Positions 24,716 to 57,794 of a stretch of 64,000 nucleotides of DNA are shown in pieces (position 1 is the first letter of the stretch; each line of letters begins with the position of its first letter). The DNA lies in assembly GCA_049322315.1 (NCBI GenBank), contig JBMORF010000060.1, forward strand, positions 7,557 to 71,556, read 5' to 3'. The notes beneath the pieces were generated by a model. The model was not told where the DNA came from. It was given only the letters and a program-made list of their open reading frames with translations, and did no database searches. Source of the DNA: Thermodesulfobacteriota bacterium. Lineage in GTDB: Bacteria; Desulfobacterota; Desulfobaccia; Desulfobaccales; 0-14-0-80-60-11. The position numbers and the translations under genes were made by a program.

Positions 24716-24718
24716 AAA

Positions 24719-24795: not shown

Positions 24796-24806
24796 TAAGG
24801 TTCATT

Positions 24807-25667
24807 ATGCAGCAATTTTTTCGCAATATCTATGAAATTCTGGACATGATCAAAATCGGCCACAGTGTCCTGGCCCTCCCCTTTGCCTTTATGGGGGCCA
24901 TGCTGGCGGCCCGGGGCTGGCCGGATGGCCGCACCACCCTCTTTATCCTCCTGGCCATGGTCACCGCCCGGAGCGCGGCCATGGCCTTCAATCGTCTGGT
25001 GGATGCCGCCATCGACGCCGCCAACCCCCGGACCGCCACCCGATCGTTGCCCCAAGGACGTCTAAAGAGGAACTCGGTGCGGCTCTTTGTGGCCGTGAAT
25101 TGCCTGCTCTTTGTCTGGGCCGCGGGCCAGCTCAACCGAATCTGCCTTTTCCTCTCTCCCCTGGCCCTGGCGGTGATTTTAGGCTATTCCCTCACCAAAA
25201 GGTTCACCTCCGCCACCCATTTTATCCTGGGTTTGGGTCTGGGCCTGGCTCCGGTGGGTGGCTGGCTGGCGGTACGGGGCGATCTGAGCCTCCAGGTTCT
25301 GGTTTTGGGAGGGTCTGTCCTTTTTTGGGTGGCGGGTTTTGATATCCTCTACGCCCTCCAGGATGAGGAGTTCGACCGGCAAACGGGGCTCTGGTCCCTG
25401 CCGGCCCGGGTGGGGTCGGATTGGGCCCGGGGTCTGGCGGCCGGCTGCCACCTGCTGGCGGCCGCCGGTTTTCTCCTTACCGGTATCATGGCGGGGTTAC
25501 ACGGGGTTTACCCGGTGGCCGCGCTTTTAGGGGCCGGACTGCTGGCCGGTCAACATATAATTCTTACCCTGAGGGGAGCCACACGGCTCCCTCCAGCCTT
25601 TTTTACTCTCAACGGCTTGGTGGGGCTGGGCTTGGGTTTAGCCACGTGGCTCAGCCTTGTCCGCTAA
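24807..25667 (+). CDS. UbiA family prenyltransferase (4-hydroxybenzoate polyprenyltransferase-like / MqnP-like)
   Basis: NRLVDAAIDAANPRT Asp-rich motif in a polytopic protein. Confidence 0.8.
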   Translation: MQQFFRNIYEILDMIKIGHSVLALPFAFMGAMLAARGWPDGRTTLFILLAMVTARSAAMAFNRLVDAAIDAANPRTATRSLPQGRLKRNSVRLFVAVNCLLFVWAAGQLNRICLFLSPLALAVILGYSLTKRFTSATHFILGLGLGLAPVGGWLAVRGDLSLQVLVLGGSVLFWVAGFDILYALQDEEFDRQTGLWSLPARVGSDWARGLAAGCHLLAAAGFLLTGIMAGLHGVYPVAALLGAGLLAGQHIILTLRGATRLPPAFFTLNGLVGLGLGLATWLSLVR

Positions 25668-29739: not shown

Positions 29740-29898
29740 CGTTTTTGGTTTTTGGTTTTTCGTACGGTTCTCAGAAGAGTAACCGGAGGGGCGGGCCTCG
29801 GCACCCGCCACCCAAGGAAAGTTTTCCTGTTTCTCAAGTAAGCTTGATTGTTAGCAATATGAACGAAAAACGCAAAACGTAAAACGCAGAACGAAACG
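29740..29898. repeat. CGTTTTT...ACGAAAA-armed intergenic element (copy 1)
   Basis: The left arm is cgttttt ggttttt ggttttt. The right arm is acgaaaa acgcaaa acgtaaa acgcaga acgaaac. The core carries a REP-C hairpin at 29788-29809. Starts 5 nt after the livM stop. Confidence 0.9.
29788..29809. repeat. REP-C hairpin GGGGCGGGCCTCGGCACCCGCC
   Basis: Stem GGCGGG/CCCGCC. A second copy lies at 41074-41095. Confidence 0.8.
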
Positions 29899-29917: not shown

Positions 29918-30643
29918 ATGCTAACCCTCAAAAGCGTCCAGGCCGGCTACGGCAAATTAACGGTCCTTAAGGGCATCTCCTTCCACGTGCGCCCCGGCGA
30001 GGTGGTGACCTTGATCGGCGGCAACGGCGCGGGCAAAAGCACCACTTTGCGGGCCGTCTCCGGTCTGCTGCCGCCCTGGCGGGGAGTGGTGGAATTTAAC
30101 GGCGCGGATCTGACCCGGCTGCCGCCGGAGCGTATTGTCTCCCTGGGTCTGGCCCTGGTGCCGGAAGGCCGCCGGGTCTTCGCCAGTCTCAGCGTCACCG
30201 CCAACCTGGAGTTGGGAGCCTTCCACCGCCGGGACCAGAGGCAGGCGCACCGGGACCTGGAAGAGATTCGGGAACGCTTTCCCCTTCTTCAGGAGCGGGC
30301 CTCCCAGCCCGCGGGCACCTTGAGCGGCGGCGAGCAGCAGATCCTGGCCATCTGCCGGGCGTTGATGTCCCGGCCCCGGCTGTTGATGCTGGATGAGCCC
30401 TCCATGGGCCTGGCCCCCCGCATGGTGAGCCAGGTCTACCAGATCCTCCGGGAACTGAAGAGTGAGGGCACCACCTTGCTGCTCATCGAGCAGAACGCCC
30501 GGGCCGCCCTGAAGCTGGCGGACCGGGGCTATGTGCTGGAGACCGGCCGCATCATCCTCGACGGCTCCGCGGCTGAACTCCGGGAAGACCCGGAAGTGCA
30601 GCGGGCGTATCTGGGCAAGGGCTACCGGGAAGTTTGGGAATAA
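29918..30643 (+). CDS. livF: Branched-chain amino acid ABC transporter ATP-binding protein LivF
   Basis: YGKLTVLKGISF..GEVVTLIGGNGAGKSTTL, LSGGEQQ, 241 aa. Confidence 0.9.
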   Translation: MLTLKSVQAGYGKLTVLKGISFHVRPGEVVTLIGGNGAGKSTTLRAVSGLLPPWRGVVEFNGADLTRLPPERIVSLGLALVPEGRRVFASLSVTANLELGAFHRRDQRQAHRDLEEIRERFPLLQERASQPAGTLSGGEQQILAICRALMSRPRLLMLDEPSMGLAPRMVSQVYQILRELKSEGTTLLLIEQNARAALKLADRGYVLETGRIILDGSAAELREDPEVQRAYLGKGYREVWE

Positions 30644-30704: not shown

Positions 30705-31817
30705 ATGAGCGCCAAAAAAGCGATTGATTGGATTACCATCTCGGGGTTCAAGTCAATTCGTGACTTGGACCGATTTGAAATGCGTAGTTTGAATGTACTC
30801 ATCGGTGCCAATGGCGCAGGCAAGAGTAATCTTGTGTCATACTTTCGTATGCTGGGTGAGATGGTGGAAGGCCGCTTGCAAAGTTGGACCCGCAACCAGG
30901 GGTCGGCTGATCGCATCGTCAGTTTTGGGGTAAAAGAAACCAACATATTGAAATCTTTTATAGAATTTGGATTAAATGGTTACGAGTTTACTCTAACACC
31001 CACTGTAGAAGGAAGTTTTTCTTTTGTCAGCGAGAGGCTTTTTTTTTCCGGGGTTTATTTTGGTAGCGAATGGATTAACCTTGGTTCAGGTCATATAGAA
31101 TCGCAACTTAAAAATAAATATGAATCATGGAGTAAAGGTAGCGTTGCAGACTATTGCTATAGCTCCATTGCCAGTTGGAAAGTCTTTCATTTCCATGATA
31201 CCAGTGATACCGCGGGCGTAAAACGTCTGGGGTCGGTACATGACAATGAATACCTGCGCCCGGATGCTTCTAACTTAGCTGCTTTCCTATACCGCCTCTC
31301 TGATGAGAACCCCGATATTTATCAGCAGATCCTCAAGACGATCCGTTTAGCCATTCCATTTTTTGATAAGTTTGTATTGAAGCCACAAAGGTTGCCCACA
31401 GAAGAAGAACAGATTAGGCTTTTGTGGCGGCAAAAAGATAGTGATTACTCCCTCTGGCCAAGTCAATTATCAGACGGCTCAATCCGCTTTATCTGTCTGG
31501 TCACGGCCTTGCTGCAACCAGACCCCCCTTCCACTATTATTATCGATGAACCGGAACTAGGCTTGCATCCTTACGCTATCACCTTATTAGGCTCATTGTT
31601 GCGCTCAGCATCCAAACGGATGCAAGTGATCGTTTCTACCCAGTCGGTGCCTTTGGTGGATGAATTTTCAATTGAAGACTTGGTAATCGTAGAACGCGAA
31701 CAGGAAGAGACCGTCTTCAAACGCTATAATGAAGAGGATTTCAAAACATGGTTGGAAGAGTACTCAATTGGTGAACTTTGGGAGAAGAATATCCTCGGTG
31801 GGAGGCCGCGCAAATGA
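30705..31817 (+). CDS. ABC/SMC-type (AAA_21/AAA_15-like) ATPase, stand-alone
   Basis: Walker A LIGANGAGKSNL, signature-like QLSDGSIRF, Walker B IIIDEPELGLHP, H-loop region VSTQS. AT-rich (a hand count of 60 nt at 31000 gives about 33% GC, against about 75% at 30301 in livF). Confidence 0.8.
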   Translation: MSAKKAIDWITISGFKSIRDLDRFEMRSLNVLIGANGAGKSNLVSYFRMLGEMVEGRLQSWTRNQGSADRIVSFGVKETNILKSFIEFGLNGYEFTLTPTVEGSFSFVSERLFFSGVYFGSEWINLGSGHIESQLKNKYESWSKGSVADYCYSSIASWKVFHFHDTSDTAGVKRLGSVHDNEYLRPDASNLAAFLYRLSDENPDIYQQILKTIRLAIPFFDKFVLKPQRLPTEEEQIRLLWRQKDSDYSLWPSQLSDGSIRFICLVTALLQPDPPSTIIIDEPELGLHPYAITLLGSLLRSASKRMQVIVSTQSVPLVDEFSIEDLVIVEREQEETVFKRYNEEDFKTWLEEYSIGELWEKNILGGRPRK

Positions 31818-32494
31818 CCCGCGTGCACGTGATTTGCGAAGGCCAAACCGAAGAAACGTTCGTCAATGAGGTTCTATACGATTGGTTCCATCCCAGGGGA
31901 ATATATCTTTTTCCATCTCTGATTGGCAAACCTGGACATAAAGGCGGCAAACTGAAATTCCAGCGACTCCTGATCGACATACGAGGAAGACTGATGGGTG
32001 ATAAGGCCGCCTATTGCACAACATTTTTTGATTTCTATGGCCTTCCAAGCGACTTTCCGGGCAAGGAAAATGCCCGGTTAAAATCTAACATCGCCGACAA
32101 AGCGGAGTGTGTGATGCAGTCCTTGAGTGCACAATTGCAAGGCAAGTTAGGGGAAGAACCGCTTCGCAGGTTTATTCCCTATGTGCAGATGTATGAGTTC
32201 GAAGGACTTCTGTTCAGTGAACCTGAAATATTAGCTCAAAGTATTTCCCAATCACAGCTTGCCGGCACTTTCCGAAAAATTCGGGACGGATTTAACTCTC
32301 CCGAGGAAATAAATGACGATCCAGAGAAAGCTCCAAGCAAGCGTATCTTAGACTTTTTTACAGCATACGATAAACCGGTATACGGTTCACTTGCCGCTTT
32401 GGAGATTGGCTTGGCAGCTATTCGCCGTGAGTGCGCTTTATTTAATGGATGGTTAGAACGGATTGAGTCATTGCCAACCGAGGTTATCGCATAA
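31814..32494 (+). CDS. DUF4276-like small protein (possible TOPRIM-like effector)
   Basis: 226 aa starting at the ATGA overlap with the ATPase stop. N-terminus RVHVICEGQTEETFV (strand plus conserved EG/acidic motif, as I recall for DUF4276). AT-rich. Confidence 0.55.
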   Translation: MTRVHVICEGQTEETFVNEVLYDWFHPRGIYLFPSLIGKPGHKGGKLKFQRLLIDIRGRLMGDKAAYCTTFFDFYGLPSDFPGKENARLKSNIADKAECVMQSLSAQLQGKLGEEPLRRFIPYVQMYEFEGLLFSEPEILAQSISQSQLAGTFRKIRDGFNSPEEINDDPEKAPSKRILDFFTAYDKPVYGSLAALEIGLAAIRRECALFNGWLERIESLPTEVIA

Positions 32495-32531
32495 GGGGAT
32501 TCGAAAGCCTCTAAAAACAGTAATCCAACAC

Positions 32532-33293
32532 ATGGAATTATTGACAGTCAATCAACTCACGAAATACTTCGGGGGCGTCAAAGCCGTCGACGGGGTTTCT
32601 TTCGCCGTGGACCAGGAGGAGATCGTCGGTCTCATCGGTCCCAACGGCGCGGGCAAGACCACCTGTTTTAACCTCATCAGCGGCTTGCTGCCTCCCACCG
32701 GCGGCTCGGTCAGCCTCCTGGGGCGCAACCTGGGTAGCCTGGCTCCTTATTACCGCTCCCGCCGGGGCCTGGCCCGCACCTTCCAGAATATCCAGCTCTT
32801 CGGGGGCATGAACGTTTTGGAAAACGTCCTCACCGGTTGCCACCAGCGCCAGGAAGTGGGCGCACTCCGGGCCCTGTGGCCCGGGCGGGGAGTGCGCCGG
32901 GCTGAAGCCCACGCCCGGGAACGGGCCCGGGAGCTCTTGGAGTTGGTGGGCCTGGCGGAAAAGGCGGATTTCCCTGCGGACGCCCTGGCCTACGGGGAAC
33001 AGCGCCGCCTGGAAATCGCCCGGGCCTTGGCCCAGGAACCCAAAGTGCTCCTCTTGGACGAGCCGGCCGCGGGCCTCAACTCCCGGGAGACCGAGGACCT
33101 GATGACCCTGCTCCAGGAACTTAGGGAGCGGGGCATTACCCTGTTGATCATTGAGCATGACATGACCCTTATCATGGGACTCTGCCATCGGGTGGTGGTG
33201 TTGGACCACGGCCAGGTCATCGCCGCGGGCCCGCCCTCCGAAATCCGGCGGGACCCCCGGGTGATCGAGGCCTACCTGGGCCGGGAGGATTAA
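32532..33293 (+). CDS. livG: Branched-chain amino acid ABC transporter ATP-binding protein LivG
   Basis: LTKYFGGVKAVDGVSF..IVGLIGPNGAGKTTCFN, YGEQRRLEIARAL. Start at MELLTV. Confidence 0.9.
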   Translation: MELLTVNQLTKYFGGVKAVDGVSFAVDQEEIVGLIGPNGAGKTTCFNLISGLLPPTGGSVSLLGRNLGSLAPYYRSRRGLARTFQNIQLFGGMNVLENVLTGCHQRQEVGALRALWPGRGVRRAEAHARERARELLELVGLAEKADFPADALAYGEQRRLEIARALAQEPKVLLLDEPAAGLNSRETEDLMTLLQELRERGITLLIIEHDMTLIMGLCHRVVVLDHGQVIAAGPPSEIRRDPRVIEAYLGRED

Positions 33294-33298
33294 CAGAT

Positions 33299-33578
33299 CG
33301 TTTTACGTTTTTCGTTTTGCGTTTTCCGCATGCTTATTCGATATCAAAATGGCTGGAGGGGTTTCCGTTCCTTTCCAGCTTGTAAGAAATAAAATTCTTT
33401 ATCAAAGGTTTGTTACCCGTAGGGGCGAACCTTGTGTTCGCCCGGCATCCGGGACGAAAACAAATTTCCGTAAGTAAAATCAGTGATTGATGAAGAATTG
33501 GCACTGGCAGACTGGATCTTGCGACCAGGCAGGTAAAGAAAATACGAAAAACGCAAATCGGAAAACGAAAAACGGAGA
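33299..33578. repeat. CGTTTTT...ACGAAAA-armed intergenic element (copy 2)
   Basis: The left arm is cgtttta cgttttt cgttttg cgttttc. The right arm is acgaaaa acgcaaa tcggaaa acgaaaa acggaga. The core contains REP-A at 33422-33443. Starts 5 nt after the livG stop. Confidence 0.9.
33422..33453 (+). repeat. REP-A copy GGGGCGAACCTTGTGTTCGCCC(GGCATCCGGG)
   Basis: 7-bp stem GGGCGAA/TTCGCCC. Same 22-mer as at 57763. Confidence 0.9.
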
Positions 33579-37375: not shown

Positions 37376-37906
37376 ATGGGAGAATCTATCAAGAAAAGGT
37401 CTAATGGCAAATCCGGTGGCACAGGCGTCTCGCCTGTGCACTCCTTTAAGATCACCCGCAGGAACCTGCCACACTGGCAACTGCCGGAAAGTGTTTACTT
37501 TATCATTTGGCGAAGTAAGGATTTTCAAGTTTTATCACCGGAAGAACGCACCATTACTTTAGAAGCCATTAAATATTGGGAAGGCCGCAAATGGACAGTC
37601 CATGCGGCGGTGGTCATGCCGGATCATGTCCATCTACTGGGTCAACCACTGGCTCTGCCTGGAGGTGGATTTGTTAATTTGGCTAAGATTATCCATAGCA
37701 TCAAAAGCTATTCCAGCCACGAAATAAATAAAAAGCGAGGTACGACAGGCTGCATCTGGCAGGATGAAAGGTTTGACCGCATCGTTCGGGATGAGGATGA
37801 ATTCTTGGAGAAATGGCGGTATATCAGAAATAATCCGGTTAAAAATGAATTGGCGGAAAATCCCGAAGATTACCCCTGGCTGTATGAGAATGTGAGTGAA
37901 GAATGA
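37376..37906 (+). CDS. REP-associated tyrosine transposase (RAYT, IS200/IS605 Y1 family)
   Basis: RRNLPHWQ N-terminal motif, HUH motif MPDHVHLL, and catalytic Tyr region WRYIRNNPVK. The 5' end overlaps REP-B, so the true start is uncertain. Confidence 0.8.
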   Translation: MGESIKKRSNGKSGGTGVSPVHSFKITRRNLPHWQLPESVYFIIWRSKDFQVLSPEERTITLEAIKYWEGRKWTVHAAVVMPDHVHLLGQPLALPGGGFVNLAKIIHSIKSYSSHEINKKRGTTGCIWQDERFDRIVRDEDEFLEKWRYIRNNPVKNELAENPEDYPWLYENVSEE

Positions 37907-37954
37907 TAAAGGAGCACAGGCGAGACGCCTGTGCCACCAGACCACCTGTGCCAC
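37423..37954 (+). mobile_element. REP-B / RAYT / REP-B unit
   Basis: The left REP is CCGGTGGCACAGGCGTCTCGCCTGTGCA (37423-37450). The right REP is an inverted GCACAGGCGAGACGCCTGTGCCACC (37914-37938) plus a partial CACCTGTGCCAC (37943-37954). Confidence 0.8.
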
Positions 37955-41345: not shown

Positions 41346-41373
41346 CGTTTTGTTTCAGAGAAGCTTTCCTGGT

Positions 41374-42399
41374 ATGCCATCGCTTAATGAAGCAGATTTT
41401 GTCGAGATTTTTCGCCGGGATTGGGCGGAGTTGTGGCCCTTGCTGGCCGAGGCCCAGAGCCTCCGGGAGCGCCATTTCGGCCGGGAGGTCAGTTTCTGCG
41501 TCATCACCAACGCCAAGTCGGGACTCTGTTCCGAGGATTGTGCTTTTTGTTCCCAGGCGGCCGGCGCTAGGGGAGAAATTCCCCGCTACCCCCTGTCGCC
41601 CCAGGAAGAGTTGGTGGCGGCCGCGGCCCAGGCCGCCGCAGCCGGAGCCTCCCGCTTTTCCCTGGTGACTTCCGGCCGGGGCCTTAACTCCCCCAAAGAG
41701 CAAGAGGCCCTGCTGCGCACGGTGGCCGCCATCAAGGAGACCGTCCCTATCCGGGTCTGCGCCTCCCTGGGGATTGTGGAGCCAAGCTTTCTCAAGGAAT
41801 TAAAAGCCGCGGGCCTCTCCCGTTATCACCACAATCTGGAGGCCGCGGCTTCCTTTTTCCCTCAAATTTGCACCACTCACTCCTATGCCGAACGGGTGGC
41901 CACCATCGAGGCGGCCCGGGCCGCGGGGCTTTCCGTGTGCGCCGGGGGTATTCTGGGATTGGGTGAGTCTCTGGCTCAGCGCTGGGAACTGGCCCAGGCC
42001 TTGAAAGACTTGCCGGTGGATGCTATCCCTCTCAATTTTCTGCACCCATTGCCGGGAACCGGCCTGGCCCGGCGGCCTTTGCTGCCGCCCCTGGAGGCCC
42101 TGCAGATCATCGTCGCTTTCCGCCTCCAACTCCCGGACCGGTCCCTCATCATCTGCGGCGGCCGCCAGGCGACTTTGCGTTCCCTGGCGCCTTTGATCTT
42201 CGCTGCGGGGGCCAACTGCCTGATGACCGGGGACTACCTGACCACCAAGGGCCGCCTCCCGGAGGAGGACCGGCAGATGCTAACCGACCTGGGCCTGGAA
42301 TTGGCGCAGGAAGGAATAGTGAGCAGCGAGCAGCAAGCAGTGAGCAGTGGCCAGTGGCCAGTAGCCAGTGGCCAGTGGCCAGTAGCCAGTGGCCAGTAG
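41374..42399 (+). CDS. bioB: Biotin synthase BioB (with repeat-encoded C-terminal tail)
   Basis: Radical SAM motif CSEDCAFCSQ. The last 27 aa or so (SSEQQAVSSGQWPVASGQWPVASGQ) are translated from the heptamer array. Confidence 0.9.
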   Translation: MPSLNEADFVEIFRRDWAELWPLLAEAQSLRERHFGREVSFCVITNAKSGLCSEDCAFCSQAAGARGEIPRYPLSPQEELVAAAAQAAAAGASRFSLVTSGRGLNSPKEQEALLRTVAAIKETVPIRVCASLGIVEPSFLKELKAAGLSRYHHNLEAAASFFPQICTTHSYAERVATIEAARAAGLSVCAGGILGLGESLAQRWELAQALKDLPVDAIPLNFLHPLPGTGLARRPLLPPLEALQIIVAFRLQLPDRSLIICGGRQATLRSLAPLIFAAGANCLMTGDYLTTKGRLPEEDRQMLTDLGLELAQEGIVSSEQQAVSSGQWPVASGQWPVASGQ

Positions 42400-42477
42400 C
42401 CAGTAGCCAGTGGCCAGTGGCCAGTGGCCAGTGGCCAGTAATCAGTAATCAGTGATCAGTGATCAGTAATCAGTGAA
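42317..42477 (-). repeat. Phased heptamer array CAGTRGC / CAGTRAT, 23 units (161 bp)
   Basis: tagtgag cagcgag cagcaag cagtgag, then 13 units of cagtggc/cagtagc, then cagtaat x2, cagtgat x2, cagtaat, cagtgaa. It is the reverse complement of the 22376-22641 family. The bioB stop TAG (42397-42399) lies inside a unit. Confidence 0.95.
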
Positions 42478-42501
42478 AACCTAGTGATTTCGGCTTAATA
42501 A

Positions 42502-42537
42502 CCTTGAACCTTGAACCTTGAACCTTGAACCTTGAAC
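42502..42537 (-). repeat. Heptamer array CCTTGAA x5
   Basis: Reverse orientation of the GTTCAAG family. Confidence 0.95.
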
Positions 42538-42549
42538 TCTTTGAGTCTA

Positions 42550-43308
42550 ATGAATCCGAAACTACCGGATATTCCCGAAATCAAAGGTCTCTTCGTCACC
42601 GGCACCGATACCAATGTGGGTAAGACCCAGGTGGCGGCCGGACTCACCGCGGCCTTAAGAAAAGGGGGGCTCAAAGCCGGGTATTTCAAGCCCGTCCAGA
42701 GCGGCTGTCCGGAGGAGGGGGGACGCCTGATCCCCACGGATGCCCGGATCGCCCAAGAGCTGGCGGCCCTGCCGGAGCCCTTGGAGCTGCTCACCCCCAT
42801 CACCTTGCGGCTGCCCCTGGCTCCGGGAGTGGCCGCGGCCCGGGAAGGGATCAAAGTGGACCTGGAGCGGGTGGCGGCGGTTTATCGGGAGCTGGCCCGG
42901 CGCTATGACTTCCTGGTGGTGGAAGGCGCGGGCGGCCTTTATGTGCCCCTGGTGGACACCAAATTTTTAGTCCTGGACCTGGCCTGCTGGCTTAATCTCC
43001 CCCTGTTGGTAGTGGCTCGGGCGGGCCTGGGGACCATCAACCACACGGCCCTCACCGTGTTGGCGGCCCGCCGGGCGGGGTTGGCCGTGGCCGGGGTGAT
43101 CCTCAATCGCTGCTCCGCTTCCCCGGGATTGGCGGAGAAGACCAATCCGGAGGTGATTGAGGCCCTCACCGGCGTCCCCATCCTGGGCAAGGTGCCGGAG
43201 ATCGACAACCTCGAATCTCCCGAGGGCAAGCAGATTTTTCTAAGCGCAATGGCAGGAATCTGCTCCGGCATAAATCTTTTCAAAAATTCGCAATGTCGCG
43301 GAGACTGA
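42550..43308 (+). CDS. bioD: Dethiobiotin synthase BioD
   Basis: LFVTGTDTNVGKT P-loop. Start at ATG 42550. Confidence 0.9.
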   Translation: MNPKLPDIPEIKGLFVTGTDTNVGKTQVAAGLTAALRKGGLKAGYFKPVQSGCPEEGGRLIPTDARIAQELAALPEPLELLTPITLRLPLAPGVAAAREGIKVDLERVAAVYRELARRYDFLVVEGAGGLYVPLVDTKFLVLDLACWLNLPLLVVARAGLGTINHTALTVLAARRAGLAVAGVILNRCSASPGLAEKTNPEVIEALTGVPILGKVPEIDNLESPEGKQIFLSAMAGICSGINLFKNSQCRGD

Positions 43309-46062: not shown

Positions 46063-46065
46063 GAC

Positions 46066-46308
46066 CGTTTTTCGTTTTGGGTTTTTCGTTTTTCGTTGGG
46101 GTCTGCTATCGTTATCTTTGTGCAATTTTCTGCATACCTCTTAGCTTTTTTATTGGCAAAATCAATTAATATGTTAACATTATAAGGTTTAAGTAAGGTC
46201 GATGTTGATGGTATAGCAGCTTTTCAAACTTGTTCCTGCTAATCAAACTAAAGTAGATCACCAGATGCTTTTAACGAAAAACGAAAAACGGGAAACGGAA
46301 AACCGTAT
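46066..46308. repeat. CGTTTTT...ACGAAAA-armed intergenic element (copy 3)
   Basis: The left arm is cgttttt cgttttg ggttttt cgttttt cgttggg. The right arm is acgaaaa acgaaaa acgggaa acggaaa accgtat. The core is AT-rich. Starts 3 nt after the bioC stop. Confidence 0.9.
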
Positions 46309-46315: not shown

Positions 46316-48184
46316 ATGTCCGAATTACTCACAGGCCAGCCGGGTGAACGGCGGTTATTTCTGGGAAACGAGGCCATTGTTCGGGGGGCCCTGGAGGCCG
46401 GGGTCGCCCTGGTCGCCACCTACCCCGGCACCCCCGCCTCGGAGATCGGCGACCGCTGTTACGAAATCTCCCGGCAAACGGACCTCTACTTCGAATACTC
46501 CGTCAATGAAAAGGTGGCCCTGGAAGTGGCCGCGGGGGCGGCGGCCTCCGGCTGGCGCTCTCTGTGTTCCATGAAGCACGTGGGCCTCAACGTGGCCGCG
46601 GACACCCTGATGACCCTGGCCTATGTGGGCGTTAAAGCCGGGTTGGTCATCATCAGCGCCGACGACCCTTCTCTCTTTTCCAGCCAGAACGAACAAGATA
46701 ACCGCTACTACGCCAAAATGTCGGGTATCCCTATGCTGGAGCCGTCTTCCCCCCAGGAAGCCAAAGAGATGACCCGGGCCGCGTTCAAGATTTCCGAGGA
46801 GTTGCAACTGCCGGTGCTGCTCCGCACCACCACCCGCATTAACCATTCCCGGGCCCCGGTGACCTTGGGAGAACTGGCCCCCTTTCCCCGCCCCGGTTTT
46901 TTCCCCAAAGAGCCTTTCCAGAAAGTGATGGTTCCCATGGTGGCCCGCCAGGGCCATGTACGGCTGCTGGAGGCCCAGGCCCGGGCCGCGGACCAGGCCG
47001 AGGTTTCCGGCTTTAACCGGATATCTGGTCAAGGGACCTGGGGCATCGTCACCAGCGGCGTGAGCAGCAGCTACGTGGAAGACGCCTTGGCCGAACTGGG
47101 TCTGAAAGACCGGGTGTGGCTTCTCAAGCTGGGCTTCACCCACCCCCTGCCGGTAAATCTGATCACCAAGTTTCTGGCGCCTCTGGAAAAGGTGCTGGTG
47201 GTGGAGGAATTGGAGCCGTACCTGGAGGAGAGCCTCCGGGCCATCGCCCAGGCCCAGGGTTTGACCCTGCCCATCCAGGGGAAGAGCCCGGCCCTCTTTT
47301 CCCGGCTCTATGAGTATCATCCGGCCCTGGTGCGCCGGGTCACGGCCCGGTATTTCGGCGTGCCCGACAAGGTCACGGAGCCTCCGGAACCGGCGGCGAT
47401 TCTGGGACAGCCCCTGCCGGAGCGGCCCCCCAACCTCTGTCCGGGTTGCCCCCACCGTGCCATGTATTATTCCGTGAAAATAGCTTTAAAAGACTTGGGC
47501 GTCGAAGGGGTCTTCCCCACGGACATCGGCTGCTACACCCTGGGGCTGCTGCCGCCCCTTTCCATGGCCGATATCCTCATCTGTATGGGCTCTTCCATCA
47601 ACAACGCCGCGGGCATTTCCCGGGCCACGGAGCAGAAGGTGGTGGCCTTTATCGGTGATTCCACCTTTTTCCATGCCGGCCTGCCGGGCCTGACCAACGC
47701 CGTGCACCAAAACCATGATTTTCTCCTGGTCATCCTGGACAACGGCACTACGGCCATGACCGGCCACCAGCCGCATCCGGGGGTGTCCCTCACTCCCGTT
47801 GGCTACCCGTGCGAACACGTGCCCCTCAAGCGGGTGGTCAAGGCCCTGGGCGTGGAAAAACTCTGGGTGGTCAATCCCTTTAAATATCAGGAGGCCCTTA
47901 AGGCCACCAAAGAAGCGGTAAGCGCCACCGGGGTGCGGGTTCTTATTGCCGAGGCCCCTTGTCATCTGCATGTGCACCGGCTCCAGGGTAAGAAAAGCCA
48001 GGCCCGCTTCCAGGTCACCGACCAGTGCCGGGACTGCCGCCACTGTCTGGATTACTTCGGCTGTCCGGCTATGCAACTGAACGATAAGCCGGAAGGAGGC
48101 CGCATGCTCATCGACACCGACCTCTGCACCGGCTGCGCCTTCTGCGTCCAATGGTGCGAGGCCATCCGGCCGGTGAAGAAGTGA
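46316..48184 (+). CDS. iorA: Indolepyruvate ferredoxin oxidoreductase alpha subunit
   Basis: TPP motif GDSTFFHAG and a C-terminal 4Fe-4S domain (CRDCRHC, CTGCAFCVQWC). Confidence 0.9.
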   Translation: MSELLTGQPGERRLFLGNEAIVRGALEAGVALVATYPGTPASEIGDRCYEISRQTDLYFEYSVNEKVALEVAAGAAASGWRSLCSMKHVGLNVAADTLMTLAYVGVKAGLVIISADDPSLFSSQNEQDNRYYAKMSGIPMLEPSSPQEAKEMTRAAFKISEELQLPVLLRTTTRINHSRAPVTLGELAPFPRPGFFPKEPFQKVMVPMVARQGHVRLLEAQARAADQAEVSGFNRISGQGTWGIVTSGVSSSYVEDALAELGLKDRVWLLKLGFTHPLPVNLITKFLAPLEKVLVVEELEPYLEESLRAIAQAQGLTLPIQGKSPALFSRLYEYHPALVRRVTARYFGVPDKVTEPPEPAAILGQPLPERPPNLCPGCPHRAMYYSVKIALKDLGVEGVFPTDIGCYTLGLLPPLSMADILICMGSSINNAAGISRATEQKVVAFIGDSTFFHAGLPGLTNAVHQNHDFLLVILDNGTTAMTGHQPHPGVSLTPVGYPCEHVPLKRVVKALGVEKLWVVNPFKYQEALKATKEAVSATGVRVLIAEAPCHLHVHRLQGKKSQARFQVTDQCRDCRHCLDYFGCPAMQLNDKPEGGRMLIDTDLCTGCAFCVQWCEAIRPVKK

Positions 48185-48271
48185 GCGGTGAGCGGTGAGC
48201 GGTGAGCAGTAATAAGTAATAAGTAATAAGTAATAAGTAATAAGTAATAAGTAATCAGTTAATAGTGGGCA
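48181..48271 (+). repeat. Phased heptamer array GTGAGCG x4 then GTAATAA x6 and variants (13 units)
   Basis: The first unit contains the iorA stop TGA (48182-48184). Confidence 0.95.
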
Positions 48272-48315
48272 AGAATAGGTAAGGCCGTGGCGGAATTGAT
48301 AATTTAAGATAGGAG

Positions 48316-48343
48316 CCGGTGGCACAGGCGTCTCGCCTGTGCA
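48316..48343 (+). repeat. REP-B copy, 28 of 28 identical to the left REP of the RAYT
   Basis: CCGGTGGCACAGGCGTCTCGCCTGTGCA, identical to 37423-37450. Confidence 0.95.
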
Positions 48344-48362
48344 TGAAAAGCGAGGGACAGAA

Positions 48363-48887
48363 ATGATGAAGGGAGAATTTGATGAGATTGAATTGAAAAT
48401 TAAAGAAATACTTGAAAAGATTGCCCAGCAAGCCGTTGAAGATGGTGGTTATACCAATGAATGGTGGACAAAGAGAATTAAATCTGAACTTTGCATTTTA
48501 GGCCATGAGAAAGGGTATAGTGTCAGTGCAACAGGATGTGAGCGTCTAGAAAAAGCTCCAGAGACTGGAGAATGGCTGTTTGATCTGATTTGGGCAAAAG
48601 GCGAGGGTCATCCATGGATTTTTCGAGAAATGCCCTTAGCTAGGGAATGCGAATGGCCTTTAAATGAAAATGAAATATGGTGGGATTTTGAGAAACTTTT
48701 AGTAATTAGAAGTAAATATCGTATTTTTATTTTTGATAAAAGAAAAAGAGAGGATATTGAGAGACTTTTTAATGAATTTAATGATGCAATTCATGGTTTC
48801 GAGAGTTCACAAAAGGGAGACAGGTATCTTTTAGCCGGTTTTTCTTGCGAAGATAATAATTTCAAATTTCGACAGGTAATCGCCTAA
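48363..48887 (+). CDS. Hypothetical protein (174 aa), AT-rich orphan between iorA and iorB
   Basis: Start at ATG 48363 with RBS GAGGGA (the track start lies inside the REP). No family recognised. A weak PD-(D/E)xK-like pattern is present (EWLFDLIW...ECEW...DFEKLL). Confidence 0.5.
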   Translation: MMKGEFDEIELKIKEILEKIAQQAVEDGGYTNEWWTKRIKSELCILGHEKGYSVSATGCERLEKAPETGEWLFDLIWAKGEGHPWIFREMPLARECEWPLNENEIWWDFEKLLVIRSKYRIFIFDKRKREDIERLFNEFNDAIHGFESSQKGDRYLLAGFSCEDNNFKFRQVIA

Positions 48888-48893
48888 TAAATC

Positions 48894-49562
48894 ATGAGCG
48901 CCACGGAAAACGGAAAACGGAAAACGGAAAACGCCACCCTCCGGCTCCGCATCTTCCTCACCGGCGTGGGCGGCCAGGGGACCCTCCTGGCCAGCCGGGT
49001 CTTGGGGGAGGCGGGGATGGAGGCCGGGTTTGCTCCCCTGGTGAGCGAAACCCACGGCATGGCCCAACGGGGCGGCATCGTCGTCTCCACCGTGGTCCTG
49101 GGGGAGGTGAAAAGCCCCATTATTTCTCCGGGGGAGGCGGATGTGCTCCTGGGTTTCGAGGCCCTGGAGACCTTCCGGGCTTTAAGCTATTGCCATGACC
49201 GCAGCCTGGTGATCGCCAACACCGCGGCCGTGGCCCCTTATCCGGTGGCCATCGGCCAGGCCCAGTATCCCCCGGTGGCCCACCTCCTGGAACTTATAAG
49301 CGAACACGTGGGCGGGCTTTTGGCTTTTGACGCCGGCGCCCTGGCCCGGCAGGCCGGCAGCGCCCTGGCGGTAAACATGGTCCTCCTGGGAGCCCTGGCC
49401 GCCACCCCTTACCTGCCCTTTAGCCTGGAGGACCTGCGGCACATACTTCGGACCCGCACCAATCCGAAATTCCTGGAGGCCAACCTGAACGCCTTCCAAG
49501 CCGGCGTGGACGCCGCCCAGGATTCTCAATATTGGCTACGCCGTCTTGCGTCCTGGCATTGA
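48894..49562 (+). CDS. iorB: Indolepyruvate ferredoxin oxidoreductase beta subunit
   Basis: IFLTGVGGQGTLLASRVL. The N-terminal 13 codons or so are repeat-encoded. Confidence 0.85.
   Translation: MSATENGKRKTENATLRLRIFLTGVGGQGTLLASRVLGEAGMEAGFAPLVSETHGMAQRGGIVVSTVVLGEVKSPIISPGEADVLLGFEALETFRALSYCHDRSLVIANTAAVAPYPVAIGQAQYPPVAHLLELISEHVGGLLAFDAGALARQAGSALAVNMVLLGALAATPYLPFSLEDLRHILRTRTNPKFLEANLNAFQAGVDAAQDSQYWLRRLASWH
48903..48937 (+). repeat. Heptamer array ACGGAAA x4 plus ACGCCAC inside the iorB 5' end
   Basis: Encodes ENGKRKTEN. Confidence 0.9.
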
Positions 49563-49626
49563 CTCGCCCTTAAAGCATAGTTATGTTTTGCTGGAGGATA
49601 TTAGTAAAACTTTTACAGGCAGAACC

Positions 49627-50070
49627 ATGATGGTTTTTTTACAGGGACCGCAGCCGACCAAATATTGGCAATGGTCCCATACCGCGGACCTGGGCCTGCG
49701 GATCTGGGGTAGTACCCCAGAGGAGCTCTTTGAAAACGCCGGAGAAGCGCTGACCGCCGTCCTGACGGACCGGCGGCGGCTGCGGCTCCGGCGCCGGGAA
49801 GAGATTACGGTGGAAGCCGACGATCTGGAAGCCCTCCTGGTTGCGTGGCTCAATCACTTGCTTTATCTTTATGACGTGGACGCTTTTTTGGCTAGGGAAT
49901 TTCAGGTACAGGAGTTAAGTCCCCGACACTTGAAAGCCCAAGCCCGGGGGGAAACCTACGATCCCCAAAGGCACGAGGCCAAGACCGCGGTCAAGGCCGC
50001 CACGTACCACCACTTGGAGATCGTTAAACGGAACGGTGGCTGGCAAGCGACCGTGATTTTAGACCTATGA
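49627..50070 (+). CDS. Archease
   Basis: WSHTADLGLRIWG, KAATYHHLEI. Start set at Met28 of the track ORF. Confidence 0.8.
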   Translation: MMVFLQGPQPTKYWQWSHTADLGLRIWGSTPEELFENAGEALTAVLTDRRRLRLRRREEITVEADDLEALLVAWLNHLLYLYDVDAFLAREFQVQELSPRHLKAQARGETYDPQRHEAKTAVKAATYHHLEIVKRNGGWQATVILDL

Positions 50071-50073
50071 GGG

Positions 50074-50178
50074 GCTATTAGTAATAAGTGATAAGTAATA
50101 AGTGATCAATTATTAATAAATTCTTATGACTTATGACTTATGACTTATGACTTATGACTTATTACTTATTGCTGTCTA
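50074..50178. repeat. Inverted heptamer arms GTRATAA x4 / CTTATGA x5 plus CTTATTR (15 phased units)
   Basis: Starts 3 nt after the archease stop and ends 2 nt before the rtcB ATG. Confidence 0.95.
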
Positions 50179-50180
50179 AA

Positions 50181-51629
50181 ATGGCCAATCAAGTCAAGCT
50201 CCGCCAGGTGGATGAGTACCGCTGGGAGATTCCCCGGGAAGGAAAGATGCGCACCCGGGGTTTGATCTTCGCCTCCCGGAAGATGCTCACCAAGATCCAG
50301 GACGACCAGAGTCTGCAGCAGGTAGCCAACGTGGCCACCTTGCCGGGCATTGAAGGCGCCTCCCTGGCCATGCCTGACATCCATTGGGGTTACGGCTTCC
50401 CCATCGGCGGGGTGGCGGCCTTTAACCTGGAAGAAGGGGTGGTCTCCCCCGGGGGGGTGGGCTACGACATCAACTGCGGCGTGCGCCTGCTGCGCACCAA
50501 CCTGGCCAAGCCGGAGGTGGCGCCCCGCATCGAGGAGCTGGTCAACGCCCTGTTCGGCAACATCCCTTCGGGTCTGGGCTCCCGGAGGAAGGATTTAAAG
50601 CTCACCGTCCCCTCCTTGCACGAGGTGTTGCGCCTGGGGGCCGGCTGGGCCGTAAAAAAAGGCTTCGGCACCAAGGAAGACCTGGCCCACATCGAGGCCC
50701 AGGGCCGGATTTCCGGGGCCGACCCGGAGTTGGTCTCCCAGTTTGCCATGGACCGGGGCAAGGACCAGTTGGGGACTTTGGGCTCCGGCAACCACTTCGT
50801 GGAAGTGGGTTATGTCCTGGAGATTTACGACCAGGCAGTGGCTGCGGCCCTGGGACTCTTTGAAGACCAGATTACGGTGATTGTCCACACCGGCTCCCGG
50901 GGTCTGGGACACCAGGTGTGCGATGACTATATTAAGTTAATGCTCAAGGCCACCAAAAAGTATGGCATTGAACTCCCGGACCGCCAGCTTTGCTGCGCGC
51001 CTTTAAGTTCGCCGGAAGGCCAGCAATATCTGGCGGCCATGGCTGCCGCGGCCAATTTCGCCTTTGCCAACCGGCAGATGATCACCCATTGGGTCCGGGA
51101 GAGCTTCGAGCAGGTCTTGCAGATGGGTCCTAAGGATTTGGGGTTGGAGCTGATTTACGACGTGGCCCACAACATCGCCAAGATCGAGGAACACCGGGTC
51201 AACGGCAAAAAGAAAAAGGTCTGCGTTCATCGCAAGGGCGCTACCCGGGCCTTTCCCCCGGGCCACCCGGAGACGCCGGAAGCCTATCAGGAGACGGGCC
51301 AGCCGGTGCTCATCCCCGGGGACATGGGGCGCTATTCTTTTGTGCTGGTGGGCACGGAAAAAGCCTTGACGGAAACCTTCGGCAGCACCTGCCACGGCGC
51401 CGGCCGGGAGATGTCCCGGTCCCAGGCTCTGAAAACGGCCCGGGGACGCTCCGTCATCCAGGAATTGAAGGCCCAGGGCATCGTCGTCAGGGGCGCGGGT
51501 AGGGCCACGGTGGACGAAGAGATCCCCGAGGCCTACAAAGACGTGGAAATGGTGGTGGAGGTGGCCCACGGCGCGGGAATTTCCCGGAAAGTGGCGAAGC
51601 TGAAGCCTTTGGGAGTGATTAAGGGATAG
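50181..51629 (+). CDS. rtcB: RNA-splicing ligase RtcB
   Basis: [15 protein letters not shown] and [11 protein letters not shown]. Start at MANQVKL. Confidence 0.95.
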
Positions 51630-51656
51630 TTCAAAGTTCAAGGTTAGGTCTGCAAG
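51629..51656 (+). repeat. Heptamer arm GTTCAAR x2 plus degenerate units
   Basis: gttcaaa gttcaag gttaggt ctgcaag. The first base is the last base of the rtcB stop. Confidence 0.85.
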
Positions 51657-51691
51657 CTGAGTTTTTAGATAGGAAGAGAAAGAAGGCAAGC

Positions 51692-51994
51692 ATGCCAATA
51701 ATCGAACTACCACATGGAAATGCCTCGTTCGATTCTGATGATTTAAAAGGATATATTAGAGCAACAGGTAGGAACTACATCATACAAGGACAGCAAAATT
51801 GTAGTAGAAAAAATCATACTAAGCCTCAAAGCTTGGACTGTTGGCTAAAAGGTAATTGTACTCAATATTCTGATACTAAACAAGCAGTAAATGAAGTAAT
51901 ATATGGTCTTATAAACACTGGAGAATTTAGGGAAGGAAGATATATCTGTCCTGATACTGGAAGATGGGCCAAAGGAATCCAAATAATAGATTAA
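51692..51994 (+). CDS. Hypothetical protein (100 aa), AT-rich orphan
   Basis: ATG with upstream GAAGG. No family recognised. Four Cys residues. Confidence 0.4.
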   Translation: MPIIELPHGNASFDSDDLKGYIRATGRNYIIQGQQNCSRKNHTKPQSLDCWLKGNCTQYSDTKQAVNEVIYGLINTGEFREGRYICPDTGRWAKGIQIID

Positions 51995-52010
51995 ACTATA
52001 GCAGCACTAA

Positions 52011-52092
52011 CCTTGAACCTTGAACCTTGAACCTTGAACTTCTCGACAGCAGTCAAAAGCTGACCGCTGATAGCTGAAAGCTGATAGCTAAT
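52011..52092. repeat. Heptamer arm CCTTGAA x4 followed by CTGAYMG-type units (12 phased units)
   Basis: ccttgaa x4, cttctcg acagcag tcaaaag ctgaccg ctgatag ctgaaag ctgatag ctaatat. Ends at the ffh ATG. Confidence 0.9.
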
Positions 52093-53430
52093 ATGTTCGA
52101 CCGACTCTCCGACAAATTAGCCGCGGTCTTCAAAAAACTCAAAGGCCATGGCAAGCTCAACGAGGCCCAGGTAAACGAGGCCCTCCGGGAGGTGCGGCTC
52201 GCCCTGTTGGAGGCCGACGTCCATTACAAGGTGACCAAGAGCTTCATTGAGTCCATTAAGGCCAGGGCCGTGGGCGAAGAGGTGATGCGCTCCTTAACCC
52301 CGGCCCAGCAGGTGATAAAAATCGTCCACGAGGAGTTGACCCAGCTTTTGGGGGGCGAATCCCCCCGTCTGGACTTAGGCGGCAAGCCCCCGGTGGCCCT
52401 GATGCTGGTGGGCCTCCAGGGCTCCGGTAAAACCACCACCGCGGGCAAGTTGGCCCGGCGCCTTAAAAGCCAGGGCCGCCAGCCTTATTTAGTGCCCGCG
52501 GACGTCCAGCGGCCCGCGGCCATCGAGCAATTGAAACGTTTGGGCGCCGATCTGGGGGTGGAGGTCTATCCCTCCCGGACTGATCAGAACCCGGTGGCCA
52601 TCGCCGACGCCGCCATGGAAGCGGCCTACACCGCGGGCTATGATACCGTCATCCTGGACACCGCCGGTCGCCTCCATATCGATGCGCCCTTAATGGCAGA
52701 ACTTAAGGCCATCAGGGAAAAGACGGAGCCCCAGGAAATCCTCCTGGTGGCCGACGCCATGACAGGCCAGGACGCAGTGCAGGTGGCCCAAAAATTTCAC
52801 GACCTGCTAAAGCTCACCGGGGTCATCCTCACCAAGATGGAGGGCGACGCCCGGGGCGGCGCGGCCCTGTCCATGCGGGCGGTGATCGGCAAACCCATCA
52901 AGTTTCTGGGGGTGGGGGAAAAATTGGACGCCCTGGAGGTCTTCCACCCGGATCGCCTCAGCTCCCGCATCCTGGGCATGGGCGACGTCCTCACCCTCAT
53001 CGAGAAGGCCCAGGAGACCTTCGACGCCGGCCAGGCCCAAGCCCTGGAAAAAAAGCTACGAAAAGAGGGCTTTACCCTGGAAGATTTCCGGGACCAATTG
53101 CGGCAGATCAAAAAGATGGGTACAATGGAACAATTACTCAGCATGATCCCGGGCATCGGCAAGAACAAGGCCCTGAAAGGGATGCAACCCGACGAACGGG
53201 AACTGAAACGGGTGGAGGCCATCATCAACTCCATGACCCCCAAAGAAAGGTCCGACCACCAGATCATCGACGGCAGCCGGCGTCGGCGCATCGCTCAAGG
53301 CAGCGGCACCACCGTCCAAGACGTCAATCGCTTGCTAAAAAATTTCGGCATGACCCAAAAAATGATTAAACAAATGACCCAGGGTGGCAAAAAGGGCAAA
53401 CCCCCCTTCTTCCCGGGGAAATTTTTTTAA
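52093..53430 (+). CDS. ffh: Signal recognition particle protein Ffh
   Basis: GLQGSGKTTTAGKLA, DTAGR, and a Met-rich M domain. Confidence 0.95.
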   Translation: MFDRLSDKLAAVFKKLKGHGKLNEAQVNEALREVRLALLEADVHYKVTKSFIESIKARAVGEEVMRSLTPAQQVIKIVHEELTQLLGGESPRLDLGGKPPVALMLVGLQGSGKTTTAGKLARRLKSQGRQPYLVPADVQRPAAIEQLKRLGADLGVEVYPSRTDQNPVAIADAAMEAAYTAGYDTVILDTAGRLHIDAPLMAELKAIREKTEPQEILLVADAMTGQDAVQVAQKFHDLLKLTGVILTKMEGDARGGAALSMRAVIGKPIKFLGVGEKLDALEVFHPDRLSSRILGMGDVLTLIEKAQETFDAGQAQALEKKLRKEGFTLEDFRDQLRQIKKMGTMEQLLSMIPGIGKNKALKGMQPDERELKRVEAIINSMTPKERSDHQIIDGSRRRRIAQGSGTTVQDVNRLLKNFGMTQKMIKQMTQGGKKGKPPFFPGKFF

Positions 53431-56314: not shown

Positions 56315-56480
56315 CGTTTTTTGTTTTTGGTTTTTCGTTTTTCGTGAAAAGAATCTAAAAATTTCGACAAACTGCACATAACCTTCGATTCGTTTGCAAG
56401 TGAAGAGGACATGCATTGAATTAATTAAGCTTGTCATTAATACTTATCCTTTACGAAAAACGAAAAACGAAAAACGGTCT
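56315..56480. repeat. CGTTTTT...ACGAAAA-armed intergenic element (copy 4)
   Basis: The left arm is cgttttt tgttttt ggttttt cgttttt cgtgaaa. The right arm is acgaaaa x3 then acggtct. The core is AT-rich. Starts 3 nt after the rnhB stop. Confidence 0.9.
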
Positions 56481-57762: not shown

Positions 57763-57794
57763 GGGGCGAACCTTGTGTTCGCCCAGCATCCAGG
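57763..57794 (+). repeat. REP-A copy GGGGCGAACCTTGTGTTCGCCC(AGCATCCAGG)
   Basis: 22-mer identical to 33422-33443. Confidence 0.9.

Follow-up and report, generated by a model that had tools for sequence, protein, structure and literature searches.

Complementary heptamer arrays at gene boundaries of a Desulfobaccales genome, and a small accessory gene enclosed by one of their pairs

Results

Anatomy of the rtcB-ffh spacer

The 64,000-nt stretch of contig JBMORF010000060.1 analysed here (hereafter the window), from an uncultured Thermodesulfobacteriota bacterium of the Desulfobaccales (assembly GCA_049322315.1), carries a gene for an RNA ligase, rtcB (50154-51629, + strand; Pfam RtcB, E 1.9e-179), followed by ffh (SRP54; 52093-53430, + strand). 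The spacer between them holds a small open reading frame (ORF), here called orf100, enclosed by two inverted arrays of 7-nt repeats. The subject of this analysis is the nature of these arrays and of their association with orf100. SRP54 domains were found on the Ffh orthologue of locus L210, one of the loci (numbered with an L) with which the window is compared below.

The left (5') arm (51629-51653, + strand) begins inside rtcB, as the TAG stop codon (51627-51629) overlaps its first unit, the G of the stop being the first G of GTTCAAA. The units GTTCAAA GTTCAAG (51629-51642) are followed by GTT and by 8 more bases, likewise paired with the right arm. Next comes orf100 (51692-51994, + strand), encoding a conserved accessory protein of 100 aa with 4 Cys and no assigned function, with a Shine-Dalgarno-like AGAAGG (51681-51686) 5 nt upstream of its ATG. 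The right (3') arm (52001-52040, + strand) consists of GCAGCACT, complementary to the inner portion of the left arm, and of an AACCTTG array (CCTTGAA units; 52009-52039, 4.4 copies with 100% matches in Tandem Repeats Finder, TRF). A last array, of AGCTGAY (CTGAYMG) units in 5.1 copies (TRF; 52058-52093, + strand), reaches into the ffh ATG. Complementarity of the arms outruns the repeats, 51629-51653 matching 52001-52025 at 22 of 25 positions by Watson-Crick pairs across the 347 nt between them, and when the 481-nt spacer RNA is folded the arms are paired in both the minimum free energy and the centroid structures. The double heptamer GTTCAARGTTCAAR has 16 matches in the window, against 0.07 expected by chance. 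GC content over the orf100 region is 0.34-0.37 versus 0.60-0.65 in the flanks, and GC at third codon positions (GC3) is 0.21 in orf100 versus 0.81 in rtcB and ~0.8 in ffh. Known RNA families and tRNAs were not found in the spacers.

This anatomy had been described in an earlier note on the same DNA, made from the letters alone, and all of it is present: the inverted GTTCAAR / CCTTGAA arms able to form a hairpin, the AT-rich surroundings of a 100-aa ORF with 4 Cys, and the CTGAYMG units running up to ffh. In the source metagenome, read depth over orf100 (68) equals that of the flanks. Reads that join 51645 to 52010, considered as a possible orf100 deletion allele, come from other loci with short-loop GTTCAAR hairpins.

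Heptamer arrays across the window

The arms of the rtcB-ffh spacer are two of many such arrays. A TRF census of the whole window (period 7, at least 2.5 copies) counted 29 such arrays, built from 10 or more types of unit. Of the 73 TRF rows for this DNA, 30 have period 7 and 12 have period 14 or 21, and heptamers with their multiples thus make up most of the repeat spectrum. The arrays are strongly intergenic, 24 of the 29 lying in the 10.3% of window DNA outside long ORFs (p = 1.5e-19); they occupy 15 of the 38 spacers of at least 40 nt and make up about 19% of intergenic DNA.

Complementary pairs of arrays are found in seven spacers and in three flavours (GTTCAAR, CGTTTTT and AGTRATA). Where a spacer has an array at each end, the two match in flavour in 7 of 10 cases, versus 2.7 expected under random pairing (P = 0.0025). 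Left arrays start 3-9 nt past the upstream stop and right arrays end 9-24 nt ahead of the downstream start, and the usual order is a G-rich array abutting the stop and its C-rich reverse complement just before the next start; post-stop arrays have more G than C on the sense strand in 11 of 12 cases. The six arm-paired spacers other than rtcB-ffh contain no ORF and have unrelated cores. As no similarity in sequence or length links the loops of the two GTTCAAR pairs, nor those of the four CGTTTTT pairs, the arm pairs are not copies of one element. Heptamer arrays are a genome-wide feature of gene boundaries and often come as complementary pairs.

The second GTTCAAR/YTTGAAC pair, at 24716-24796 (+ strand), separates a ubiX-like gene (24131-24715) from a ubiA-family gene (24807-25667), likely operon partners encoding a UbiX-type flavoprotein and a UbiA prenyltransferase. 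Its 27-nt arms (24716-24742 and 24765-24791) form 25 Watson-Crick pairs and one G-U across 22 nt, and the RNA hairpin is predicted at -37.1 kcal/mol (z = -6.8). The earlier note had rightly seen the same arms here at short spacing (24719-24795), as well as unpaired arms, placed here at 5889-5909 and 42500-42537. The former belong to a GTTCAAR array (5887-5909, + strand) after the stop of gene 4917-5849, and the latter are an array of AACCTTG x5.4 (42500-42537, + strand) just ahead of the start of gene 42532-43308.

In the spacer upstream of rtcB, behind the archease gene, an AGTRATA array faces an array of CTTATGA/CTTATTA units (AGTRATA/TYATGAC pair; 50074-50172, + strand). The best stem of 33 nt has 33 nt between the arms, 40-nt arms are 19 nt apart, and the RNA fold gives z = -4.3. 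CTTATGA units at 50154-50180 supply ATGs to the annotated N-terminus of rtcB, whose true start is probably the ATG at 50181, judging from relatives that align from residue 5-14. In the same way ACGGAAA x4 (48894-48933) enters the annotated N-terminus of the POR gamma gene, where it would encode TENGKRKTEN. Both genes probably start downstream of their arrays, and ORF callers are probably prone to mis-set starts at such places.

All four CGTTTTT/AAAAACG pairs lie on the + strand: CGTTTTT / AAAACG at 29740-29886 (99 nt between arms), CGTTTTW / GAAAAAC at 33299-33574 (210 nt), CGTTTTT / AACGAAA at 46064-46306 upstream of the POR/IOR alpha gene (175 nt, the loop being AT-rich with a promoter-like site at 46153-46180) and GTTTTTS / ACGAAAA at 56323-56475 (101 nt). 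We also considered a model in which arrays bracket genes, so that a gene or operon would be preceded by an A-rich array and followed by a T-rich one that pairs with it. Since only one case (29862...33299) fits it, the description of arrays as bracketing spacers was retained. Two arrays are far longer than the usual 3-6 copies: CTGGCTA/CTGACTA x38 in a divergent spacer (22376-22643), and CAGTGRC x20 (42338-42476), which overlaps the end of ORF 41350-42399 and precedes the 42500-42537 array.

The same spacers in related genomes

The Ffh of the window is 97% identical to that of the Desulfobaccales-related metagenome-assembled genome (MAG) JAQTXE01 ('Syntrophales bacterium STC_127') and 82% identical to that of a Desulfobacca acetoxidans MAG. 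The cluster of POR-alpha, POR-gamma, archease, rtcB and ffh is syntenic in nine Desulfobaccales-type loci. The rtcB-ffh spacer is hypervariable. L001 has GTTCAAR arms, the left one of 5 degenerate units, and orf100 (81% identity), whereas L005 has orf100 (65%) between GTTTCGA x4 and TCGAAAC x5 arms, together with hairpins resembling repetitive extragenic palindromic (REP) sequences. In L009 GTTTTTG.. faces AAAACTA and AAACTCG units, and only REP-like palindromes are found inside. L012 has a GTTCAAG left arm, an antitoxin-like ORF and no right arm, and L010 a GTTTTCG left arm followed by antitoxin and ParE toxin genes. Neither arms nor ORF occur in L004 (the nearest relative by Ffh), L011 and L006, 31 unrelated nt taking the place of both in L004. 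In L210 and L211 an armless orf100 (71%) begins 30 nt past rtcB and its stop lies 1 nt ahead of the ffh ATG. AGCTGAY arrays precede ffh in L001, L007 and L008, with a degenerate form in L004.

Flavours differ among orthologues in the archease-rtcB spacer as well (AGTRATA, CAGTGAY, AGTAGCC and GCGGTCAGC). Hairpins of inverted arrays are found there in the window (AGTRATA), in L004 and L011 (CAGTGAY), in L007 and in L009, where AGTAGCC x5 gives a stem of 39/40 Watson-Crick pairs with a variant unit mirrored in the opposite arm. L005 has a CAGT-type array at both ends with a weak best self-stem, and L006 and L012 have a G/C-rich palindrome instead of an array hairpin. When left arms are matched to right arms across genomes, each pairs best with its partner from the same genome: no other of the 720 permutations for archease-rtcB does as well as the true assignment, which is also the best of the 24 for rtcB-ffh. 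To judge from these pairings, what is conserved in spacer arms is complementarity, not sequence. The GTTCAAR arms themselves have been retained between the window and L001 across a synonymous divergence (dS) of 0.3-0.5.

Directly after the rtcB stop of L010 (9130-9230) lies a ~70-nt insert of GC-rich palindromes, at whose border the gene end is repeated almost exactly (TAAGGGATAG ... TAAGGATAG). From its sequence it looks like a REP insertion, or that of a miniature inverted-repeat transposable element (MITE), with target duplication.

Order and polarity of arm pairs in metagenomes

A scan of metagenomes for GTTCAAG x3 returned at least 120 stretches; the results given here come from the 80 loci listed. 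These have GC contents of 0.36-0.70, which points to many source organisms. The order GTTCAAR then YTTGAAC within 1.5 kb is found at 17 loci and the reverse order at one, with loops of 7 to 699 nt. Both neighbours could be called for 11 pairs, nine of which separate genes that run in the same direction and lie close up against the stop and the start. On the sense strand, arrays adjacent to stops are richer in G than in C (46 vs 17) and those adjacent to starts richer in C than in G (43 vs 19). The loops hold REP-like hairpins in L144 and nested arrays of a second flavour in L169.

In L108 (3647-4414), from an organism of GC 0.36, GTTCAAR x4 / CCTTGAA x4 arms enclose a gene for a PF05635 '23S rRNA intervening sequence protein'. 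This gene is split by an insert of ~300 nt, its joined halves scoring E 3e-33, and the first ORF of the insert reads by eye as a GIY-YIG fragment.

The orf100 family and its history

The earlier note had called orf100 an orphan of no recognisable family. There is indeed no match to its sequence in Pfam, NCBIfam, PADLOC or a PDB sequence search, but it is not an orphan, having 160 homologues at E <= 0.01 (48-82% identity over the full length, nearly all of ~100 aa) in many metagenomes and in Methylobacter and Niveibacterium genomes. An alignment of 79 sequences with the window protein as its first row (A1) has 12 invariant positions (L6, I31, Q32, Q34, K44, L48, D49, W51, T76, F79, C86 and P87). 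Zinc binding by the four Cys was rejected, as C86 alone among them is invariant. dN/dS among six copies is 0.08-0.31, and by this sequence measure purifying selection acts on orf100, which is a genuine gene for a small protein. An AlphaFold2 model built from the alignment (pLDDT 88.8, pTM 0.80) predicts an alpha/beta fold for which Foldseek gave nothing significant in PDB (best E 0.43, weak winged-helix-like matches) or in BFVD (best E 0.024, an uncharacterised SIRV2 protein). One PHROGs family without assigned function is matched at E 8e-6, and no copies were found by tblastn against plasmids and phages.

Elsewhere, homologues of orf100 often lie in accessory or defence-type islands, such as those with a DDE transposase, an integrase and a MvaI/BcnI nuclease in L084 or with WYL and UvrD-PDDEXK genes in Niveibacterium. 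Sequence comparison places orf100 in a widespread, uncharacterised and AT-rich accessory family. In L002 a homologue is wedged between recX and alaS, and L212 has one at another site. In three unrelated contexts homologues lie at most 3 kb from RNA-repair genes: LigT / 2',5' RNA ligase family genes in L002 (2700-3218) and L086 (1560-2201), and archease-RtcB in Desulfobaccales (49546-51629 in the window). This proximity may be coincidental.

Between rtcB and ffh, orf100 is present in the window, L001, L005 and L210/L211 and absent from L004 and L006-L012. On the Ffh tree these occurrences fall in three clades (window and L001; L005; L210/L211), sister lineages of which lack the gene. Its dS values are of the same order as those of ffh (0.30 vs 0.52, 0.97 vs 0.66 and 0.82 vs 0.89 for orf100 and ffh, respectively), which indicates that it co-diverged with its neighbours and was repeatedly lost. 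On this sequence record, orf100 is an old resident of the rtcB-ffh spacer, kept by three or more Desulfobaccales clades and lost by others. An oddity is that its GC3 stays at 0.21-0.38 in hosts with a GC3 of 0.80-0.87.

The earlier note had proposed a hairpin-forming spacer that gained cargo in its loop, and had set the comparison of this spacer in relatives as a test. There the ORF turned out, in line with the note's own conditions for refutation, to be armless in L210/L211 (71% identity) or to lie between GTTTCGA / TCGAAAC arms in L005 (65%), and the flanks of homologues elsewhere, inspected for arms as the note had also suggested, have none in L002 and L212. With a dS that tracks ffh, the proposal does not hold. 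Recent horizontal entry of orf100 into the hairpin was rejected on account of its ffh-like dS and of the use of the same site, armed or armless, in three clades. Since the ORF is armless or differently armed elsewhere and co-diverges with ffh, and since six arm pairs have no ORF, the arms belong to the boundaries of host spacers and not to orf100. The rtcB-ffh spacer is a coincidence of two unrelated features, an old accessory gene in a place tolerant of insertions and the boundary arrays of the host, whose flavour on both sides happens to be GTTCAAR in this lineage.

Mobile elements and inserted genes in the window

The earlier note had also seen a superficial likeness to cassette/attC or MITE logic. 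The consensus of the attC R' core is GTTRRRY, which GTTCAAR does not fit, having C at position 4 where R is required. An integron cassette was rejected further because the ORF has an arm on either side, at a spacing of 347 nt, instead of one 3' hairpin, and because the site is between housekeeping genes, rtcB and ffh, with no cassette array. A MITE was rejected because no direct repeat outside the arms marks a target-site duplication, because the comparison with L004 gives no clean empty-site junction, and because copies share no internal sequence, the cores being unrelated.

The statement that the window has neither integrase nor transposase stood in its first part, within the limits of the scans: there was no Phage_integrase match among 10 window ORFs (seven of them of low GC3) and no phmmer match of one integrase query to 340 window frames, both weak tests confined to the window. 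It failed in its second part, as a REPtron (37376-37941) is present, with a REP-associated tyrosine transposase (RAYT; NF047646, 92.9 bits; Pfam Y1_Tnp) at 37376-37906. This gene is flanked by inverted palindromes, GGCACAGGCG-NNN-CGCCTGTGCC, at 37418-37440 and 37913-37935, a third copy of which lies at 48321-48343, just upstream of an AT-rich ORF (48339-48887). The heptamer arms are not members of this REP family, and no link between RAYT and heptamers was seen. Related REP-like hairpins occur in spacers of L005, L007, L009, L010 and L144.

The ORF at 48339-48887, which encodes 182 aa of no family and has a GC3 of 0.28, separates the POR/IOR alpha gene from the gamma gene. The arrays that flank it (48181-48933) are not complementary, being GTGAGCG x4 and AGTAATA x8 on the left and ACGGAAA x4 on the right. 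The same spacer is tight in L011 and L012, holds different AT-rich ORFs in L004 and L010, and in L009 retains a remnant of 31 aa along with this REP and a GTGAGCA array. A second palindrome family, GGGCGAAC-ACAAGG/CCTTGT-GTTCGCCC, occurs at at least three sites (19161-19209, 33420-33450 and 57764-57784), where one copy falls within the loop between the 33299/33542 arms and another has a terminator-like context. Two further regions have a low GC3. An armless pair of genes at 30705-32494, AAA_21 (AbiEii-like ATPase) and DUF4276, sits between high-GC3 genes (29918-30643 and 32463-33293) and looks like a defence-type insertion into an operon, and another insertion of foreign DNA is probable at 9703-10626, where an ORF on the - strand (GC3 0.43) encodes a ClpP-like SDH-type serine protease domain (E 1.4e-14).

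Discussion

A proposed role in RNA and its rivals

The explanation we favour, at a probability of roughly one half, is that the arrays form intercistronic hairpins resembling the short tandemly repeated repetitive (STRR) sequences of cyanobacteria, being part of the furniture of host spacers with an RNA-level role in read-through transcripts. It is favoured because it fits the placement at stops and starts, the polarity and the covariation of arms. The arrays would be transcribed, and in a read-through rtcB-orf100-ffh transcript the arms would pair as a stem of ~25-31 bp enclosing the whole intercistronic segment. The stem would resemble REP or BIME elements (see below) or the hairpin between cyanobacterial hupS and hupL. 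The upstream mRNA might be stabilised or processed through it and the A/C-rich leader of the next gene hidden, the net effect being that the relative expression of the adjacent cistrons would be set by it. The 7-nt periodicity and quick changes in copy number would come from slipped-strand mispairing, and the complementarity of arms would be upheld by selection for pairing or by hairpin-templated correction.

Several observations weigh against this explanation. Arms are dispensable at rtcB-ffh, L004 (the closest by Ffh) and L011 doing without them, and arrays are missing from 20 kb of the Desulfobacca acetoxidans MAG locus. The 481-nt spacer RNA is overall no more stable than its shuffles (z = -1.4). 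Among RNA runs in which the window sequence was sought none carries it, co-transcription and RNA pairing being what we infer. Mismatches in 15 stems comprise 10 G-U and 9 A-C, with no wobble bias on the sense strand, although a constraint at the RNA level would predict one. Finally, the long loops probably hold promoters, in which case the two arms would often be on separate transcripts. Since we infer the RNA-level role, and since wobble bias is absent and promoters in loops are probable, a mutational origin and a role at the DNA level are serious rivals.

The better placed of the two, a possibility to be kept in mind though a lesser one, is that the arrays are a neutral by-product, slippage expanding heptamers and template switching (quasipalindrome correction) copying arms, with no function and with the enclosed gene incidental. 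The balance of G-U and A-C mismatches agrees with this, as do stems that are 89% strictly Watson-Crick (364/409 positions) and the variant units mirrored between arms in L009 and L011, which templated copying predicts. The number and flavour of arrays shift fast among relatives, some lineages having none, and at rtcB-ffh a perfect right arm of 4.4 copies faces a left arm of 2 units, which suggests recent slippage. Slippage alone, however, does not predict the strict placement at stops and starts or the polarity ratios of 17:1, 46:17 and 43:19. Nor does a neutral origin sit easily with GTTCAAR arms that have lasted between the window and L001, with an AGCTGAY flavour ahead of ffh that is kept across distant clades, or with arrays filling about a fifth of intergenic DNA (19%) in a compact genome.

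A wider and more speculative formulation, which we think improbable as it stands, is that complementary, co-varying arrays constitute a self-renewing boundary-marking system of many lineages. Slippage and hairpin-templated copying would renew it, the stem (in RNA or DNA) would isolate intercistronic segments, and the loops would be tolerant sites in which promoters, REPs or small genes from elsewhere, orf100 among them, could persist.

Less likely still is a DNA element, in which inverted arrays flank AT-rich promoter cores and cruciforms or a repeat-binding protein insulate or tune the promoter. The long loops are AT-rich, and one has a sigma-70-like TTGGCA-16-TAACAT with TG (46153-46180). 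The near-perfect Watson-Crick arms with no RNA wobble signature would suit such an element, and deletion of heptamer repeats in Nostoc is reported to alter promoter read-out (bioRxiv 10.1101/2022.06.06.494920). Many flavours coexist, however, which makes a single sequence-specific binding protein unlikely, hairpins with 20-35 nt between arms are too short for a promoter, and a promoter scan found 10 versus 5.2 expected, barely above shuffles.

That orf100 came into the spacer with a MITE-like element or cassette, whose terminal repeats would be the heptamer arms and whose empty form would be 24716-24796, is very improbable: an AT-rich gene between arms in a GC-rich host, a closest relative (L004) without both arms and ORF, a short-loop copy of the arms and an HUH-type transposase (RAYT) in the window all favour it, but the ORF is armless at the same site in L210/L211, differently armed in L005 and armless at other sites (L002, L212), its dS co-diverges with ffh, same-flavour pairs have unrelated cores, target-site duplication, clean empty site and attC core are wanting, no tyrosine recombinase was found among the ORFs scanned, RAYT is flanked by its own REP palindromes and not by heptamers, and orf100 has no plasmid or phage copies.

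An apparent 'cassette with inverted repeats' can be the chance meeting of two unrelated features, a point worth bearing in mind when scans pick out MITE- or attC-like anatomy. The family of orf100, with 160 or more members, a confident predicted fold and no known relative, adjoins the RNA-repair genes archease and rtcB in Desulfobaccales.

Relation to other repeat systems

The rtcB-ffh arms share with integron cassettes and MITEs the association of inverted repeats with a small, AT-rich and promoter-poor ORF and a GTT.../...AAC flavour at the arm ends. They differ from attC cassettes in having arms on both sides of the ORF, a core that does not fit and no IntI found in the window scans, and from MITEs in the missing target-site duplication, in the lack of a core conserved between copies and in an ORF that also occurs armless. 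The ORF-bearing intervening sequences of 23S rRNA (PF05635) likewise have a small ORF in the loop of a long stem. The site here is not in rRNA, however, orf100 is unrelated to PF05635, and excision by RNase III is no more than conceivable at this site.

REPs and bacterial interspersed mosaic elements (BIMEs) also form hairpins in intergenic DNA, in many cases between cistrons. A REP is a fixed palindrome of ~23 nt that follows a single consensus, whereas the heptamer arms are tandem arrays of variable length and many flavours, up to hundreds of bases apart.

Closer parallels are found among heptamer repeats. TAACTGA direct repeats of marine Beggiatoaceae lie upstream of starts in 'forward' orientation, and a role in translation or the 5' untranslated region has been proposed for them (MacGregor 2015, PMC4679880). 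In BOGUAY they are essentially of one flavour, with one inverted set among 170 (PMC4679880). In Nostoc, TTTTGAA/TTCAAAA heptamer repeats are concentrated just before start codons (bioRxiv 10.1101/2022.06.06.494920). The present arrays resemble both in standing just ahead of starts; they differ from the TAACTGA repeats of BOGUAY in their many flavours, in the frequent complementary pairs and in that half of them abut stops.

The closest parallel is with cyanobacterial STRR sequences, of which 7-bp repeat hairpins between hupS and hupL in filamentous cyanobacteria are an example; no function has been demonstrated for that hairpin, and transcript stability or translational coupling has been proposed (PMC2670836). 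As with STRR, the units are tandem heptamers of several flavours per genome and strongly intergenic, and as between hupS and hupL, pairs of arrays can form a hairpin between adjacent genes, which are co-transcribed there and may be so here. The Desulfobaccales host and the unit sequences are different, and pairing here also spans loops of 99-347 nt, one of them enclosing a whole gene. The covariation of arms between relatives and the G-rich-first polarity are documented here and were not found described in the literature searched.

STRR and TAACTGA intergenic heptamer arrays have been known for decades and are still without established function. Three testable regularities can now be added: the placement at stops and starts, the G-rich-first polarity and the joint change of flavour in the two arms of a spacer, which together suggest that the arms are conserved in their pairing and not in their sequence. 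STRR-like heptamer hairpins are now seen in Desulfobaccales and in many uncultured bacteria, and their covariation between relatives, their fixed polarity and a long-range form that can enclose a gene are documented here.

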